The notes below the pieces were generated by a model. It worked only from the letters and a program-made list of their open reading frames with translations, was not told the DNA's origin and made no database searches. The position numbers and the translations under genes were made by a program. This document shows positions 26,872 through 49,433 of a stretch of 64,000 nt of DNA, piece after piece. Numbering within the stretch: the first letter of the stretch is position 1; each line of letters starts with the position of its first letter. Location: the IMG/VR virus record IMGVR_UViG_3300017727_000002. One strand, given 5' to 3'. This DNA comes from a virus.

Positions 26872-28041
26872 ATGTCAAGTATAGAACAAAAAATCGCAGA
26901 ACTCCTTGGTGAGAGTAAGAAAGCTGAAGAGCAAATCGATACTCTTGAGGAGTCTGAAGGCTGGAAAAAATCTAGCGATGAAGCTGAAGCTGAAGCACCT
27001 GCTGAAGAAGTAGTGGCTGAAGAAGAAGCACCAGCTGAGGAAGAGGTAGAAGAAATCGAAGAGGGTGAATTACCACCTGCTTTGAAGAAAGCTATCGAAA
27101 AGAAAAAGAAAAAAGATGGCGACGACGATGACGACGACGACGACGATGATGACGATGATGAAAAGTCTAAAGATAAAGAAAAAGACGAATCATATATGAC
27201 ATCTTCTAAAAAGAAAGAGAAGATGAAAGATATGAAAAAAGAAGAATCTGAGTCTGACGAAGAAGTTGTAGCAGAAGAAGCTGAAGAAGATGAAATCGCA
27301 GTAGATGTTTCAGAAGATGTTGAAGCATTATTAAATGGCGAAGAACTTTCTGAAGAGTTCAAAGAAAAAGCTACTACTATATTCGAAACTGTAGTTGTAT
27401 CTCGTGTTAAAAGCGAAGTCGCTAAGTTTAAAAAAGAATTATCTGAGTCTAATGCTGTTGCAATAGACGAAGCTAAAGAGAGTCTAGTTGAAAAAGTTGA
27501 TGGATATCTCAGCTATGTAGTTGAGCAGTGGATAAGTGAAAATGAAATCGCTCTCGAATCTGGTATGAAGTCGGAGATTTTAGATGGCTTCATTAATGGT
27601 ATGAAAAATCTGTTCGCTGAACATTATGTTGATGTTCCTGAAGACAGATTTGACTTACTTGGAGACGCTCAAGAAAAGGTCGAAGAATTAGAGAAGAAGC
27701 TCAATGAGCAACTTGAAGCTAATGTCGAACTTAACAAGAGTGTAAAAGCTATGGAGAAGGACGAAGTCCTTTCTAAAGCATCCGATGGTATGGCTGAAAC
27801 TGATAAAGAAAAATTTGCTGGATTAACTGAGGATCTCAGTTTTGAAGACAAAGAATCTTTTGAGAAAAAAGTCAGCACTATCAGAGAATCTTACTTTGCT
27901 TCTAAACCAAGCAAAACAAATGTAGAAACTGTTGTTACTGATGAGCCAGTACAGTTAGAAGAAGAAACTAAGAAGTCTATTTCAGACCCTAAAATTTCTG
28001 CTTATGCTGACATGCTTGACAGAAGCAACAAAAATAATTAA
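26872..28041 (+). CDS. 22: Prohead scaffold protein gp22
   Basis: Acidic coiled coil; LSEEFKEKATTIFETVV and VEKVDGYLSYVVEQW motifs. Confidence 0.95.
   Translation: MSSIEQKIAELLGESKKAEEQIDTLEESEGWKKSSDEAEAEAPAEEVVAEEEAPAEEEVEEIEEGELPPALKKAIEKKKKKDGDDDDDDDDDDDDDEKSKDKEKDESYMTSSKKKEKMKDMKKEESESDEEVVAEEAEEDEIAVDVSEDVEALLNGEELSEEFKEKATTIFETVVVSRVKSEVAKFKKELSESNAVAIDEAKESLVEKVDGYLSYVVEQWISENEIALESGMKSEILDGFINGMKNLFAEHYVDVPEDRFDLLGDAQEKVEELEKKLNEQLEANVELNKSVKAMEKDEVLSKASDGMAETDKEKFAGLTEDLSFEDKESFEKKVSTIRESYFASKPSKTNVETVVTDEPVQLEEETKKSISDPKISAYADMLDRSNKNN
27121..27159 (+). repeat. (GAC/GAT)13 poly-Asp tract inside gp22
   Basis: 13 consecutive Asp codons, flanked by Lys-rich runs. Confidence 0.9.
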
Positions 28042-28067: not shown

Positions 28068-29333
28068 ATGGATAGAAAATCATTAATGGAAAAATGGTCA
28101 CCTATTCTGGAACACGAAGGTGTTGCTCCCATCAAAGAGAATTACAGAAAAGAAGTCACTGCTGTCCTTCTAGAGAACCAAGAAAAGGCGATCAAAGAAG
28201 AAAAGCAAGCGATGTTCGAAGCTGTTCATGTCAATGATGCTGCAGCTCTTCCTGACACAGGTGGTGTGGCTAAATTTGATCCAGTACTAATTTCTTTAGT
28301 ACGAAGATCTGCTCCGCAAATGATCGCTTACGATATTTGTGGTGTACAACCTATGACTCAGCCTACTGGTCTTATCTTTGCTATGAAAGCAAGATACAGC
28401 ACTCAAGGTGGTACTGAGGCATTATTTAACGAAGCTGACTCAGACTTTTCTGGTGCAGGTACTCACGCAGGATCTAATCCTGTTGATGGCACTTACACTA
28501 CTGGTACTGGTATGACTACTGGTGCTGCTGAGGTACTTGGTGACGGAAGCACATTCCAAGAAATGGCTTTCTCAATCGAGAAAACTTCAGTGACTGCTAA
28601 GTCTAGAGCACTGAAAGCTGAGTACACTATCGAACTAGCACAAGACTTGAAATCAGTTCATGGTCTTGACGCTGAGGGCGAACTTTCTAATATCCTCTCT
28701 ACTGAAATTCTTTCAGAAATTAACAGAGAAGTTATCAGAACTGTGTACAAAACTGCTAAGCCAGGAGCTCAAACTGGAACAGCTACTGCGGGAACTTTCG
28801 ACCTAGATGTTGATGCATCTGGTAGATGGTCTGTTGAAAAATTCAAAGGTTTACTCTTCCAAATCGAAAGAGAAGCTAATGCGGTTGCTCAGCAAACTCG
28901 TAGAGGTAAAGCTAACTTCATCATCTGTTCTTCAGATGTTGCTAGTGCTTTAGCAATGGCTGGTGTATTAGATTACGCTCCAGCTCTATCAACTAACCTA
29001 AATGTAGATGAAGCTTCTACAACTTTTGCTGGTGTTCTTAATGGACGCTACAAAGTGTATGTAGATCCTTATTCAGCAAATGGTGCTGCTAGTCAGTACT
29101 TTGTAGTTGGATATAAAGGTACAAGTGCATTTGACGCAGGATTATTTTACTGCCCATATGTACCTCTACAATTAGTTAGAGCAGTAGATCCTTCAACTTT
29201 CCAACCAAAAATTGGTTTCAAAACAAGATATGGCTTCACAGCTAATCCGTTTATCCAATTGGATGGTTCTGGCGATCTAGTAGCTGACGAAAACTACTAC
29301 TACAGAAGAGTTAAAGTTACAAACCTAATGTAA
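28068..29333 (+). CDS. 23: Major capsid protein gp23
   Basis: GVQPMTQPTGLIFAM, KSRALKAEYTIELAQDLKSVHGLDAE, FQPKIGFKTRYG. Confidence 0.99.
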   Translation: MDRKSLMEKWSPILEHEGVAPIKENYRKEVTAVLLENQEKAIKEEKQAMFEAVHVNDAAALPDTGGVAKFDPVLISLVRRSAPQMIAYDICGVQPMTQPTGLIFAMKARYSTQGGTEALFNEADSDFSGAGTHAGSNPVDGTYTTGTGMTTGAAEVLGDGSTFQEMAFSIEKTSVTAKSRALKAEYTIELAQDLKSVHGLDAEGELSNILSTEILSEINREVIRTVYKTAKPGAQTGTATAGTFDLDVDASGRWSVEKFKGLLFQIEREANAVAQQTRRGKANFIICSSDVASALAMAGVLDYAPALSTNLNVDEASTTFAGVLNGRYKVYVDPYSANGAASQYFVVGYKGTSAFDAGLFYCPYVPLQLVRAVDPSTFQPKIGFKTRYGFTANPFIQLDGSGDLVADENYYYRRVKVTNLM

Positions 29334-29363
29334 TCTTAACCTTTTAAGGTACAATCCTGAAAA

Positions 29364-29389
29364 GGGGAGCTTCGGCTCCCCTTTTTTTT
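29364..29389 (+). terminator. Rho-independent terminator after gp23
   Basis: GGGGAGC-TTCG-GCTCCCC followed by T8. Confidence 0.92.
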
Positions 29390-29391
29390 GA

Positions 29392-29398
29392 CTAAATA
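29392..29398 (+). promoter_or_regulatory. Late promoter (CTAAATA) driving the riboswitch unit
   Basis: Directly after the terminator; the expected start of transcription (~29404) coincides with the 5' end of the aptamer. Confidence 0.65.
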
Positions 29399-29403
29399 AT
29401 TAT

Positions 29404-29524
29404 ATCGTTCATTCACTCTAAATGTAGCAGTGGACGGAAGTAAGTAGAATAGGAAAACCTCTCACGCAAGTGAGGTAAGCTAGTACCGAAAGGGAACGAG
29501 ACCGACAATCTACCGAAGGAACGC
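29404..29524 (+). ncRNA. Glutamine riboswitch aptamer (glnA / RF01739-like) with expanded P3
   Basis: P1 CGTTC (29406-10) / GAACG (29519-23); P2 hairpin 29414-29432; conserved GACGGAAGTA (29433-42) and CGAAGGAACGC (29514-24), which form the E-loop; P3 GTAGA/TCTAC. Confidence 0.8.
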
Positions 29525-29587
29525 AATAGGTGAATAGAATTGCGCAGTTTTATTCAAAGATCAACCTATTACAATCTGGAGGAAACG

Positions 29588-29752
29588 ATGACTACTTTCT
29601 ACAGAGGTATCAAAGTCACTGATGAAAATGTCGCCAAGGATAATAAATTGTCCAAAAAAGGTGGTATTTACAGAGGGATTAAACATGGTGCCATATCTAA
29701 AGAGAGTGTAAAAGTCGCTACTGGTTTACAGTATCGTGGCATAGCACACTAA
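29588..29752 (+). CDS. YRG-repeat peptide, DUF4278 / IF17-like (54 aa; start corrected to ATG 29588)
   Basis: SD GGAGG at 29578; three YRGI repeats; basic; sits downstream of a glutamine riboswitch, as DUF4278 genes do. Confidence 0.7.
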   Translation: MTTFYRGIKVTDENVAKDNKLSKKGGIYRGIKHGAISKESVKVATGLQYRGIAH

Positions 29753-29760
29753 CTTTAATT

Positions 29761-29807
29761 GGAGGGCAAGTATTATATTCTTATAACCAACTTGCCCTTC
29801 TTTTTTT
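29761..29807 (+). terminator. Rho-independent terminator closing the riboswitch unit
   Basis: GGAGGGCAAGT...ACTTGCCCTTC stem followed by T7. Confidence 0.8.
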
Positions 29808-29808
29808 A

Positions 29809-29815
29809 CTAAATA
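29809..29815 (+). promoter_or_regulatory. Late promoter (CTAAATA)
   Basis: Immediately after the terminator, same arrangement as at 29392. Confidence 0.55.
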
Positions 29816-29824
29816 ATTTCGGTG

Positions 29825-29850
29825 GTTATAAAAATTTATTTTTTTATAAC
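29825..29850. repeat. Inverted repeat GTTATAA-N12-TTATAAC
   Basis: Second copy of the palindrome at 13935-13960. Confidence 0.5.
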
Positions 29851-29878
29851 TAAATGTAAACACTTAATAGGAAAAACC

Positions 29879-30019
29879 ATGTCCACAGTTATTAAATTAA
29901 CGAAGAGCATGGTGCGAAAAACCAAAGCATTTGCCGAATTTCTAGCATACATTGCTCTTCCTTTAGGATTCCCAGTTGCCACATTCGTGACGATGCGAAT
30001 GAGTTATTTTGGATACTAA
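29879..30019 (+). CDS. Small membrane peptide (46 aa; start corrected to ATG 29879)
   Basis: AGGA upstream; basic N-terminus and one hydrophobic segment. Confidence 0.5.
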   Translation: MSTVIKLTKSMVRKTKAFAEFLAYIALPLGFPVATFVTMRMSYFGY

Positions 30020-30173
30020 AGAAAAACCTACAAAAACTCACGAGGACGATGTCGACTTTATGGTCGAGAACCCCATGCTATATATGGTATTATTACCATC
30101 CCTAGTCGCCATCGTTCCTCCTACTCTCGCAGTCGCAGCCATCTGGTTCCACCAATATTATATCGGTATATAG
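30009..30173 (+). CDS. Small membrane peptide (54 aa, TTG start; below track cut-off)
   Basis: Read by hand: LDTKEKPTK...MLYMVLLPSLVAIVPPTLAVAAIWFHQYYIGI; overlaps the previous stop. Confidence 0.4.
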   Translation: MDTKEKPTKTHEDDVDFMVENPMLYMVLLPSLVAIVPPTLAVAAIWFHQYYIGI

Positions 30174-30185
30174 ATTTCAAAAGAC

Positions 30186-30192
30186 CTAAATA
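30186..30192 (+). promoter_or_regulatory. Late promoter (CTAAATA)
   Basis: Intergenic, before the ORF at 30210. Confidence 0.55.
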
Positions 30193-30209
30193 GTAATATC
30201 GAGGATATT

Positions 30210-30350
30210 ATGTCTAAGTTGATTGAAATATACGAACAAGCGATTGACTGGTTTCAAGTCAAGTTCGAGATAGATTATTACCAACTCATTTTCATGGCAT
30301 TTTTGCTAGGACTTGCTGTTGGTTTACTTGCTCTCGGGATACTGTTATGA
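30210..30350 (+). CDS. Small membrane peptide (46 aa)
   Basis: SD GAGG; MSKLIEIYEQAIDWFQVKFEIDYYQLIFMAFLLGLAVGLLALGILL. Confidence 0.55.
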   Translation: MSKLIEIYEQAIDWFQVKFEIDYYQLIFMAFLLGLAVGLLALGILL

Positions 30351-30499: not shown

Positions 30500-30614
30500 A
30501 AGAATTGCTAAACTACAAAGAGTTCTAGATCGGGCACAGAATAAACAATTTAAAAATATGTGGGCATCTCATTTGGCTCACCTAAAATTACTACAAAAGA
30601 GGAAAGTTAATTGA
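30474..30614 (+). CDS. Small basic helical peptide (46 aa), apparent paralog of 30347-30499
   Basis: MAPEELLAKRIAKLQRVLDRAQNKQFKNMWASH...; stop overlaps the gp3 start. Confidence 0.5.
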   Translation: MAPEELLAKRIAKLQRVLDRAQNKQFKNMWASHLAHLKLLQKRKVN

Positions 30615-31141
30615 CTGCATATTCTAATAAATTCCCTACCGATATATCCCCATTAAATCCTAATGGCTTTACTTTTGATGTAGCCAGATTACCAGATACT
30701 ACATTCTTTGTACAATCAGTTGGATTGCCAGGACTTACTTTGGGCGAGTTTATGCAACAAACACCTTTAGTGGCTAACCCTATTCCTGGAGAAATACTCA
30801 CATACCAAGAACTTGTAGTCGAGTTTCAAGTAGATGCTAACATGACAAACTGGAAAGCAATACATGACTGGATGATTGGACTTGGGTTCCCAATAAATCA
30901 TGAGCAATATTTGTCATACCTTACCTCTGAGGAAAGAGCGAAGATTTCCGAAATATCACAAAACTTCTCAGATGCTACACTTCAGGTATTATCTGGACAA
31001 AACCAACCTGTAAAAACATTCACATTTGTTGATTGTTTTCCTACAGCACTAGAGCCGATTCAGTTTGAAGCTAAGATGCAAGATGTTATGATGGTTTCTA
31101 CTCGTGCTACCTTTAAATATACCTATTACTACTGCGAATAG
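30611..31141 (+). CDS. 3: Tail completion / sheath stabiliser gp3
   Basis: SPLNPNGFTF...FFVQSVGLPG, FQVDANMTNWKAIHDWM, SDATLQVLSG motifs. Confidence 0.88.
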   Translation: MTAYSNKFPTDISPLNPNGFTFDVARLPDTTFFVQSVGLPGLTLGEFMQQTPLVANPIPGEILTYQELVVEFQVDANMTNWKAIHDWMIGLGFPINHEQYLSYLTSEERAKISEISQNFSDATLQVLSGQNQPVKTFTFVDCFPTALEPIQFEAKMQDVMMVSTRATFKYTYYYCE

Positions 31142-45893: not shown

Positions 45894-46832
45894 ATGGATG
45901 ACCAATTTATTTGGGTCGAGAAATACAGACCTAAGACTATTGAGGAGTGTGTCCTTCCTGACAGTTTAAGGGATACATTCAAAGAGTTTGTTGCTAGTGG
46001 GCAACTGCCGAACTTCCTGTTCTGTGGTACTGCTGGTGTCGGTAAAACTACTGTCGCCAAAGCACTATGCAACGAAGTCGGTGCTGAGTATCTGTTCATT
46101 AATGGTTCCGAAGAATCTGGCATTGATGTGATACGAACAAAAATCAAAAACTTTGCTTCGTCGGTTTCCCTGACTGACTCAAAGAAAATCGTTATTCTTG
46201 ATGAAGCTGATTATTTGAATCCGAACAGTACTCAGCCAGCACTGAGAGCATTTATCGAAGAGTTCTCTGGGAACTGCCGATTTATATTTACCTGTAATTT
46301 TAAGAATAGGATTATTGAGCCACTTCACTCTAGATGTGCTGTGGTTGAGTTTAGGACTGATGCTAAGGATAAACCAGCAGTTGCTACAGCTTTCTATAAA
46401 AGAGTGGAGCATATTCTTAATACTGAGGGTGTGGACTTTGAGCAAAAAGCAGTTGTAGAAATTATACAAAAACATTATCCTGACTTCCGAAGGGTGCTGA
46501 ACGAACTTCAAAGATATTCAGTATCTGGTAAGATAGATAGTGGCATTATGATTAATGTCAGTGAAGAGTCCTGGAATAATCTCTTTACACTTCTAAAGGA
46601 TAAGAACTTCAAAGAGGTTCGTAAATGGGTCACTAAAAATAGTGATATTGAAACAACCCAATTATTTTCTGATATATTTAATAATGCTAATAACAAACTA
46701 GAATCTGCTTCAGTTCCACAAATGGTTCTGATTCTCGCAGATTATCAGTATAAAGCAGCATTTGTCGCTGACCATGAACTTAATAAAATGGCAGCACTTA
46801 CAGAGATAATGGCTTCCTGTAAGTTTAAATAA
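45894..46832 (+). CDS. 44: Clamp loader large subunit gp44
   Basis: WVEKYRPKTIEECVLP, GTAGVGKT, ILDEAD, PLHSRC. Confidence 0.97.
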   Translation: MDDQFIWVEKYRPKTIEECVLPDSLRDTFKEFVASGQLPNFLFCGTAGVGKTTVAKALCNEVGAEYLFINGSEESGIDVIRTKIKNFASSVSLTDSKKIVILDEADYLNPNSTQPALRAFIEEFSGNCRFIFTCNFKNRIIEPLHSRCAVVEFRTDAKDKPAVATAFYKRVEHILNTEGVDFEQKAVVEIIQKHYPDFRRVLNELQRYSVSGKIDSGIMINVSEESWNNLFTLLKDKNFKEVRKWVTKNSDIETTQLFSDIFNNANNKLESASVPQMVLILADYQYKAAFVADHELNKMAALTEIMASCKFK

Positions 46833-48943: not shown

Positions 48944-49007
48944 ATAATGTAGAGAGAATGCCATAATGGGTTCTCGTAAATTAAACTCGCTTCATAAGGA
49001 GGAAAAT

Positions 49008-49433
49008 ATGACGCATTATAATCTATGGAGGGACAGCAGACTTGCTCCCTTTTCAATCGGCTTCGACAATTTATTCGATACATTCGATAGAGTCGGAGAA
49101 ATCCACAAACAAGAAACTTATCCACCATACAATATCAAAAGACTCAGCGATGAGAAGTTTGCTATTGAAATGGCTGTGGCTGGGTTTTCTAAAAAAGATA
49201 TTACAGTTGAACATCAGGAGAACACTTTGACTATTAAGTCGGTGCCTTCTGAAGAAACAACTGAAGAAGAATATGTACATAGAGGTATCTCTAAGAGAAA
49301 CTTTGCTCGTACATTTACAGTTGCTGATGATGTTATAGTCAAAGGTGGCACTCTAAAAGATGGAATGCTTTCCGTCGAACTCGAAAGGATTATTCCTGAA
49401 GAGAAGAAACTTAAAGTCATCGACATTAAGTAA
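49008..49433 (+). CDS. hsp20: Small heat-shock protein Hsp20 (start corrected to ATG 49008)
   Basis: YPPYNI, IEMAVAGF, YVHRGISKRNF, DGMLSVELERIIPEEKK; SD AGGAGG. Confidence 0.95.
   Translation: MTHYNLWRDSRLAPFSIGFDNLFDTFDRVGEIHKQETYPPYNIKRLSDEKFAIEMAVAGFSKKDITVEHQENTLTIKSVPSEETTEEEYVHRGISKRNFARTFTVADDVIVKGGTLKDGMLSVELERIIPEEKKLKVIDIK

Follow-up and report, generated by a model that had tools for sequence, protein, structure and literature searches.

The 64,000-nt stretch of viral DNA analyzed here (IMG/VR virus record IMGVR_UViG_3300017727_000002; the window) comes from the late, structural part of a T4-like myovirus genome, in which a glutamine riboswitch aptamer and a small gene for a YRG-repeat peptide follow the major capsid gene gp23 (Table 1). 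Strong terminators flank the unit of aptamer and peptide gene, and a late-promoter motif precedes the aptamer. The upstream terminator, the CTAAATA motif, the Shine-Dalgarno (SD) sequence, and the downstream terminator were all found where an earlier, sequence-only reading of this DNA had placed them, as was the proposed expression hairpin, which abuts P1. The predicted transcription start, ~6 nt downstream of CTAAATA, is position 1 of the aptamer, with 5 nt separating motif and aptamer. This spacing fits a T4-type late promoter, whose -10 element is TATAAATA-like, stands ~6 nt ahead of the start, and has no accompanying -35. With 25 copies observed vs. 22.4 expected, CTAAATA is not above chance in the window; 22 of these copies are on the coding strand and many lie within intergenic gaps. 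The next copy, at 29809, stands directly past the closing terminator and opens a series of tiny ORFs of 45-54 aa, some of them hydrophobic (window 29809-30350). The first tiny ORF past the cassette (29880-30019) is 96-100% conserved in close relatives.

Table 1. Features of the riboswitch-peptide unit and of neighboring genes, in window coordinates
Feature	Position	Strand	Sequence or evidence
Prohead scaffold gene	26872-28041		
Major capsid gene gp23	28068-29333		
Intrinsic terminator after gp23 (GC-rich hairpin 29359-29386 and U8)	29359-29389	+	fold -20.2 kcal/mol, z -4.4
CTAAATA, T4-type late-promoter motif	29392-29398	+	sequence; putative promoter activity
Type-1 glutamine riboswitch aptamer, P3-expanded subclass	29404-29527	+	RF01739 cmscan
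P1	29406-29410 paired with 29519-29523	+	CGUUC/GAACG
P2	29412-29434	+	
Core strands	29433-29442; 29515-29524		GACGGAAGUA; GAAGGAACGC
P3 and inserted three-way junction	29443-29514	+	71 unique homologues with the same segments
P3 stem	29444-29448 paired with 29509-29513	+	GUAGA/UCUAC
J1	29453-29459	+	GAAAACC
Hairpin A	29460-29475	+	CUCAC-GCAA-GUGAG
Loop-E-like arm	29478-29485 and 29494-29500	+	AGCU-AGUA and GAA-C-GAG
Hairpin B	29486-29493	+	CC-GAAA-GG; enclosed by the loop-E-like arm
J3	29501-29505	+	ACCGA
Platform helix (29525-29531 with 29564-29570), enclosing hairpin 29532-29555	29525-29570	+	AAUAGGU/ACCUAUU; fold z -2.9
SD	29578-29582	+	GGAGG, context C[U/C]GGAGG conserved; sequence and cassette comparison
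Triple-YRG peptide gene, 54 aa (ATG 29588, stop 29750-29752)	29588-29752	+	PF14105
Intrinsic terminator closing the unit (hairpin 29761-29800 and U7)	29761-29807	+	-19.9 kcal/mol, z -6.5
gp19-like match	30611-31141		weak, below Pfam cut-off

By covariance model, the RNA encoded at 29404-29527 is a genuine RF01739-class aptamer. Cmscan matched the full model (positions 1-53) with 40.8 bits (E 2e-5) against a gathering score of 35 bits. In the alignment to the model the core agrees at every strongly conserved letter, and the RF01739 core features are present: P1 (CGUUC/GAACG), the E-loop with its strands GACGGAAGUA and CGAAGGAACGC, and stems P2 and P3, both of which covary among 71 relatives. 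The short consensus P3 hairpin is replaced, with 65 nt taking the place of three model positions in the P3 loop, so that the earlier description as a glnA-class core with an expanded, multibranched P3 holds. Because this region is variable and expanded sequences are already part of the founding alignment of the family, the expansion marks a subclass and not an exclusion from RF01739; all ten expanded relatives tested against the model were detected, with 40-55 bits. The aptamer occupies a 5'-UTR position, ending 60 nt before the ATG of the PF14105 peptide. Plain minimum free energy (MFE) folding did not recover the aptamer (z-score -0.48), and neither the cassette nor the peptide gave a relevant match by blastn and tblastn among 50,697 phage records. 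From its sequence, the aptamer is predicted to respond to glutamine.

We searched viral contigs for the two core strands spaced 45-75 nt apart, which returned 100 loci in three classes, namely true P3-expanded aptamers, tandem canonical aptamers, and aptamers with a second kind of P3 insert. Cellular copies were sought with an insert-only pattern in one genome per prokaryotic species, and counts for them are counts among the matches listed. Gp23 is the usual upstream neighbor of the cassette in T4-like phage contigs: at least 15 of these, with a gp23 that is 58-67% identical to that of the window, have the cassette immediately behind gp23 and on its strand, and the arrangement is identical in a set of close relatives (gp23 94-100% identical). 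Judged by gp23, the cultured phages most similar to the window phage are Methylophilales phage Melnitz (66%), Pelagibacter phage HTVC008M (64%), and several cyanophages (62-64%). The hosts of these nearest phages are OM43, SAR11, and cyanobacteria, about equally, and those phages that were checked are all Kyanoviridae. As the best cultured gp23 identities are 62-66%, the window phage has no close cultured relative.

Among the matches listed, all 36 cellular loci with a complete expanded aptamer belong to SAR86 single-cell genomes or metagenome-assembled genomes (MAGs) or to unnamed Gammaproteobacteria MAGs. The contigs that carry them are up to 1.1 Mb long, and the cassette adjoins glnK-amtB in 22 of these 36 loci. 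A comparison of window ORFs of at least 90 aa found none of the phage structural or replication genes in the cellular cassette loci. An hsp20 gene (window 48966-49433) is 48% identical to a gene elsewhere in SAR86 locus L188 and is the only window ORF of at least 90 aa with a homologue there. The SAR86 chromosomal cassette shares with the window copy the insert architecture, identical invariant strands, the SD context CUGGAGG, and a peptide of the same family (53-54 aa, up to 63% identity). It differs in having a TAnAAT sigma-70 promoter, mostly a GUUGAGAAGGGUGUA-hairpin-UGUACGAAAUCGA platform, and often a position beside glnK-amtB, whereas the window copy stands after gp23, is preceded by CTAAATA, and forms a platform helix of its own. 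A TAnAAT -10 box lies 7-11 nt before the aptamer in 27 of 32 unique cellular copies. NTAAATA is missing from all 32 unique SAR86 cassettes, whereas 14 of 39 phage cassettes have it at a distance of 5-9 nt from P1, and most of the remaining ones ~20 nt upstream.

Outside its own clade, the window peptide has its nearest relatives in SAR86 (61-63% identity). Phage and SAR86 peptides interleave in a maximum-likelihood tree that includes one well-supported mixed clade, and no fewer than two changes of label are needed to explain the well-supported branches; on this tree, the cassette has crossed between cells and phages at least twice. As SAR86 copies are under sigma-70 promoters and often beside glnK-amtB, the phage version probably derives from SAR86-like hosts and was rewired to late transcription. 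We infer that a SAR86-type module was exchanged with SAR86 phages, and the window phage itself probably infects SAR86 or a close relative. GC content is similar (window 35.8%, SAR86 loci 34.9%), which we judged too weak a signal for host identification. Taken together, we consider it likely that the window contains a host-type nitrogen-sensing cassette in a marine T4-like (Kyanoviridae-like) phage that is driven by a late promoter and probably derived from SAR86.

The peptide is basic (pI 10.1), with the three YRGI repeats noticed earlier in the forms FYRGI, IYRGI, and QYRGI, and matches DUF4278 (PF14105, 26.3 bits vs. a cut-off of 25.3; profile positions 1-56 of 57). This exact peptide is encoded on 51 contigs. 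Three YRG motifs are present in 56 of 60 unique homologous peptides and two in the rest of the set, with a median pI of 10. Every unique expanded aptamer with covered downstream sequence is followed by a YRG peptide. Sequence searches with the peptide in PDB and in NCBIfam gave no match. DUF4278 forms the N-terminal moiety of IF17, a stabilizing part that is dispensable for inactivation of glutamine synthetase (GS), and the inhibitory residues (arginines and a lysine) are carried by the IF7-like C-terminal moiety (PMC6316151). DUF4278 accounts for the whole of the window peptide, which has no IF7-like C-terminal moiety. In five SAR86 genomes, the only GS is a 327-aa GlnII-type (eukaryote-like) enzyme (L223:1210-2193), which is GlnII-like and not a confirmed equivalog as it scores 358 bits against NF041605 with a curated cut-off of 500, and no GlnE adenylyltransferase was found in these five genomes. 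With only a GlnII-type GS and no GlnE in SAR86, the cyanobacterial GSI-IF paradigm is not simply transferable. The proposal of the sequence-only reading that the phage makes a GS modulator is not supported, given a DUF4278-only peptide and the GlnII-type GS of SAR86, and the glutamine-synthetase-inhibitor reading is a weak one. The YRG protein may target GS, GlnK-AmtB, or something else.

Cyanobacteria have small, basic PII-binding proteins that are induced by nitrogen status. The peptide could act on GlnK-AmtB (PII/ammonium transport) or another nitrogen-signaling protein and not on GS, an explanation in line with the glnK-amtB neighborhood of 22 of the 36 SAR86 loci, several of which (e.g., L204) have the cassette directly downstream on the same strand. 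Gene neighborhood alone is weak evidence for such a target, however, 14 of the 36 loci have no glnK-amtB within the 8 kb examined, and the phage copy is without glnK-amtB neighbors, so that we consider this explanation rather unlikely.

An alternative is a cyanophage that, late in infection, monitors the nitrogen status of its host and produces an IF17-like inhibitor of host GSI. It builds on the cyanobacterial systems, in which glutamine riboswitches control gifB and DUF4278 genes (PMC6212724), DUF4278 is a part of IF17, and GS is reportedly inactivated more effectively with the N-terminus of IF17 (PMC6316151). Cyanophage gp23 proteins that are 62-64% identical to that of the window would also fit. 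This alternative is nevertheless improbable. The peptide is without the inhibitory IF7-like moiety, and the part of IF17 that it does correspond to is disposable for function (PMC6316151). The cyanobacterial framing of the cassette is also not supported by its cellular copies, which among the matches listed are all SAR86 or unnamed Gammaproteobacteria, and by the composition of the SAR86 nitrogen system with its GlnII-type GS and without GlnE. In addition, psbA was not found in a 117-kb close relative (gp23 97% identical).

The 65-nt P3 insert is a conserved, structured three-way junction, as comparison of its homologues shows. All 71 unique expanded aptamers, viral and cellular (the latter among the matches listed), parse into the same segments in the same order: an extended P3 stem, GAAAACC, hairpin A, two variable nucleotides, AGC-N-AGUA, hairpin B, GAA-N-GAG, ACCGA, and the second strand of the P3 stem. 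Both joining strands, GAAAACC and ACCGA, are invariant, hairpin A is closed by an invariant U.G and a C-G pair, and the AGUA/GAA strands around hairpin B form a loop-E (sarcin-ricin-like) module. Covariation was measured on an anchor-parsed alignment (Python), as MAFFT misaligns the variable hairpins. Hairpin A occurs in 50 distinct sequences, with positions 3-8 being 97-100% canonical in two to five pair types; positions 1-2 of hairpin B are 100% canonical in three pair types, and all 21 distinct pairs of P3 strands are able to pair. The strict module pattern was inside a glutamine aptamer in 36 of 36 cases and in none of 84 other pattern matches. Of the hairpins predicted for P3 in the sequence-only reading, CUCAC-GCAA-GUGAG and the possible third one, hairpin B, covary, whereas AGG-AAAA-CCU is not conserved: GAAAACC is an invariant joining strand, and this hairpin lies outside the conserved fold because many relatives read CCUGAAAACC, from which it cannot form.

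The junction is most likely a peripheral folding or tuning domain. The invariant unpaired GAAAACC and ACCGA strands, together with the loop-E-like module, could provide a pocket or a protein-binding or RNA-docking site, and conservation of the domain across phages and SAR86 might likewise be taken to mean that the insert is a second sensor or a specificity changer, which would make this a two-input or non-glutamine switch. We consider this very improbable, as the core nucleotides of the glutamine aptamer are all unchanged, the insert is located distally in P3, in a part that is variable in the family consensus, and the gene association of expanded aptamers also is unchanged, always being with a YRG peptide. 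Moreover, the isolated insert gave only chance-level matches against Rfam (cmscan, E up to 10); it is thus neither a nested aptamer nor a known family.

Two other arrangements were recovered in the viral loci. A second, unrelated kind of P3 insert (CGGAACGGAUCGUUCAUUCGC...GCGAACGCAAACG) is present in L003, L038, L047, L054, L073, and L075 (e.g., L003:770-900); it resembles a partial aptamer nested in P3 and in L003 and L038 lies upstream of cyanobacterial-style YRG peptides. Tandem pairs of canonical glutamine aptamers, an arrangement of glnA RNAs noted in 2010, make up 28 of 101 pattern matches (L008, L016, L021, L025, and 24 other viral loci; e.g., L016:2150-2300). They stand behind ATAAATA or CTAAATA motifs, and in L016 a YRG peptide follows. 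The long P2 loop CUCUAAAUGUAGCAG of the window (extra CUA/UAG stem; 29412-29434) also occurs in L024 and in the second aptamers of L016, L021, and L039. Its conservation across otherwise different aptamer classes suggests either recombination of cassettes or a functional P2 extension.

How the aptamer might be connected to translation is indicated by the leader between P1 and the SD. Common to all cassette classes is a helix that extends from one nucleotide after GAACGC to shortly before the SD. The helix covaries in the class of SAR86 and L001 (CGUU/AACG, CAU/AUG, CUA/UAG, CUU/AAG), and in the class of L014 and L024 the SD itself is paired, with a U-rich tract that immediately follows P1. The platform helix of the window stops 7 nt short of the SD, without direct SD sequestration. 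MFE folds repeatedly pair C[U/C]GGAGG with CCGAAGG of the aptamer, which could be an alternative pairing. The leader has no terminator-like element, and control is thus most likely translational. Both types of glutamine riboswitch exert ON-type control of DUF4278 genes, and Klaehn et al. postulated that glutamine binding melts an inhibitory pairing of the ribosome-binding site near the 3' end of P1 (PMC6212724). Nearest-neighbor modeling with P1 either enforced or blocked gave no consistent direction of SD accessibility (35 of 65 sequences), and the ON direction that we propose therefore rests on analogy.

These features combine into a proposed mechanism. Briefly, the late promoter would start an mRNA of ~400 nt exactly at the first nucleotide of the aptamer, with its complete glutamine-binding core and a P3 prolonged into the conserved three-way junction. 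Glutamine binding, by analogy with gifB and PMM1846, might lock P1 and its 3' strand and remodel the adjoining helix (29525-29570). This would open the ribosome-binding site, and the basic triple-YRG protein would be made at high glutamine. As a free-standing copy of the IF17 N-terminal domain, the protein would probably be a nitrogen-status effector. A more far-reaching version, in which the junction is a functional module (a tuner of affinity or kinetics, or a docking site) that fits the glutamine switch to streamlined heterotrophs, the YRG effector acts on GlnII or GlnK-AmtB in bacteria other than cyanobacteria, and T4-like SAR86 phages have repeatedly captured the cassette and wired it to late expression in order to control host nitrogen flow during virion synthesis, is speculative and appears doubtful to us. 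That the cassette is instead a passenger in the phage, expressed constitutively with the capsid genes and with an aptamer of no regulatory use, is hardly credible even though the SD in the window is not obviously sequestered and strong late transcription might swamp regulation, as aptamer core, insert, and platform are kept, with compensatory changes in helices, across phage contigs with gp23 at 58-67% identity.

In marine RNA libraries of three studies, the cassette was found on separate short contigs, including contigs of 392 and 334 nt, that span 29365-29756, 29435-29767, and, in two pieces, 29495-29755. These contigs are a weak hint of cassette expression, being assemblies that may include DNA. 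Metatranscriptome contigs matching the core strands (29442, 29524) run into other expanded-P3 variants (GGAAACCUGAAAACCUC...), so that several cassette variants co-occur in one RNA library.

Among the closest known counterparts is the leader of gifB (IF17) in Synechocystis sp. PCC 6803 (PMC6212724), with which the window shares the RF01739 core, the three-stem layout, the 5'-UTR position before a DUF4278 gene, and, by analogy, translational control through a helix next to P1 and an expected ON response. Unlike the gifB leader, the window RNA has a 65-nt three-way junction in P3, a late phage promoter, and a lineage that is not cyanobacterial, and its product is a 54-aa protein of DUF4278 only instead of the 17-kDa IF17 with an IF7-like C-terminus. 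The type-2 (Downstream-peptide, RF01704) riboswitches with PMM1846-like peptides in Prochlorococcus are likewise glutamine-responsive leaders of short, free-standing DUF4278/YRG peptides, but have a pseudoknotted two-stem aptamer fold and occur only in marine picocyanobacteria. The statement in the sequence-only reading that glutamine riboswitches had been reported in marine phages was borne out by the literature (PMC5473149, PMC9964418, PMC9004378). Cultured marine phages with such riboswitches comprise two cyanophages (McCown 2017, PMC5473149) and the phages Melnitz and Pelagibacter phage Mosig (PMC9004378). All of these are RF01739 aptamers in Kyanoviridae-type myoviruses as well, but those of Melnitz and Mosig are canonical (~50 nt; 52.8 and 50 bits) and located elsewhere in the genome; a cassette after gp23 is absent in cultured Melnitz, Mosig, and HTVC008M.

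At least 12 SAR86-type expanded-P3 sequences, with the same platform and peptide, stand in the 2010 founding glnA alignment (Weinberg et al., PMC2864571, supplementary file 80), where they are uncommented in the main text, and RF01739 in SAR86 MAGs receives a brief mention in a paper from 2025. Given the expanded sequences in the 2010 alignment and their detection by Rfam, the RNA belongs to a known riboswitch class and not to a new one. We found no published description of the three-way-junction subclass, of its SAR86 home by glnK-amtB, or of its repeated capture behind gp23 under late promoters. Riboswitches have been thought rare in phages (PMC5473149), and glutamine riboswitches with IF-type small proteins have been thought a cyanobacterial specialty (PMC6212724). 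Our findings reveal a structurally elaborated switch subclass that is common in uncultured T4-like ocean phages and shared with the abundant heterotroph SAR86. It provides a handle on the role of DUF4278 mini-proteins, on the control of nitrogen assimilation in genome-streamlined heterotrophs without GlnE, and on the question of which phages infect SAR86. If the capture by SAR86 phages is true, the cassette would be a host-linking marker for the so far uncultured phages of SAR86. Furthermore, the conserved insert offers a natural experiment on the tuning of a low-affinity aptamer by a peripheral domain.

In Melnitz (MZ577097.1, ~46398-46580; L228:1501-1680), the canonical aptamer and an SD are followed by a 32-aa ORF (MTLYQQWCYLK...) without YRG; according to the published reading, the Melnitz riboswitch controls tmRNA. 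Viral contig L014 has an expanded cassette and, 3.3 kb upstream of it (L014:1848-2164), a tmRNA gene of the permuted (two-piece, alpha-type) form (RF04321, 112 bits), an arrangement that recalls Melnitz-like phages.
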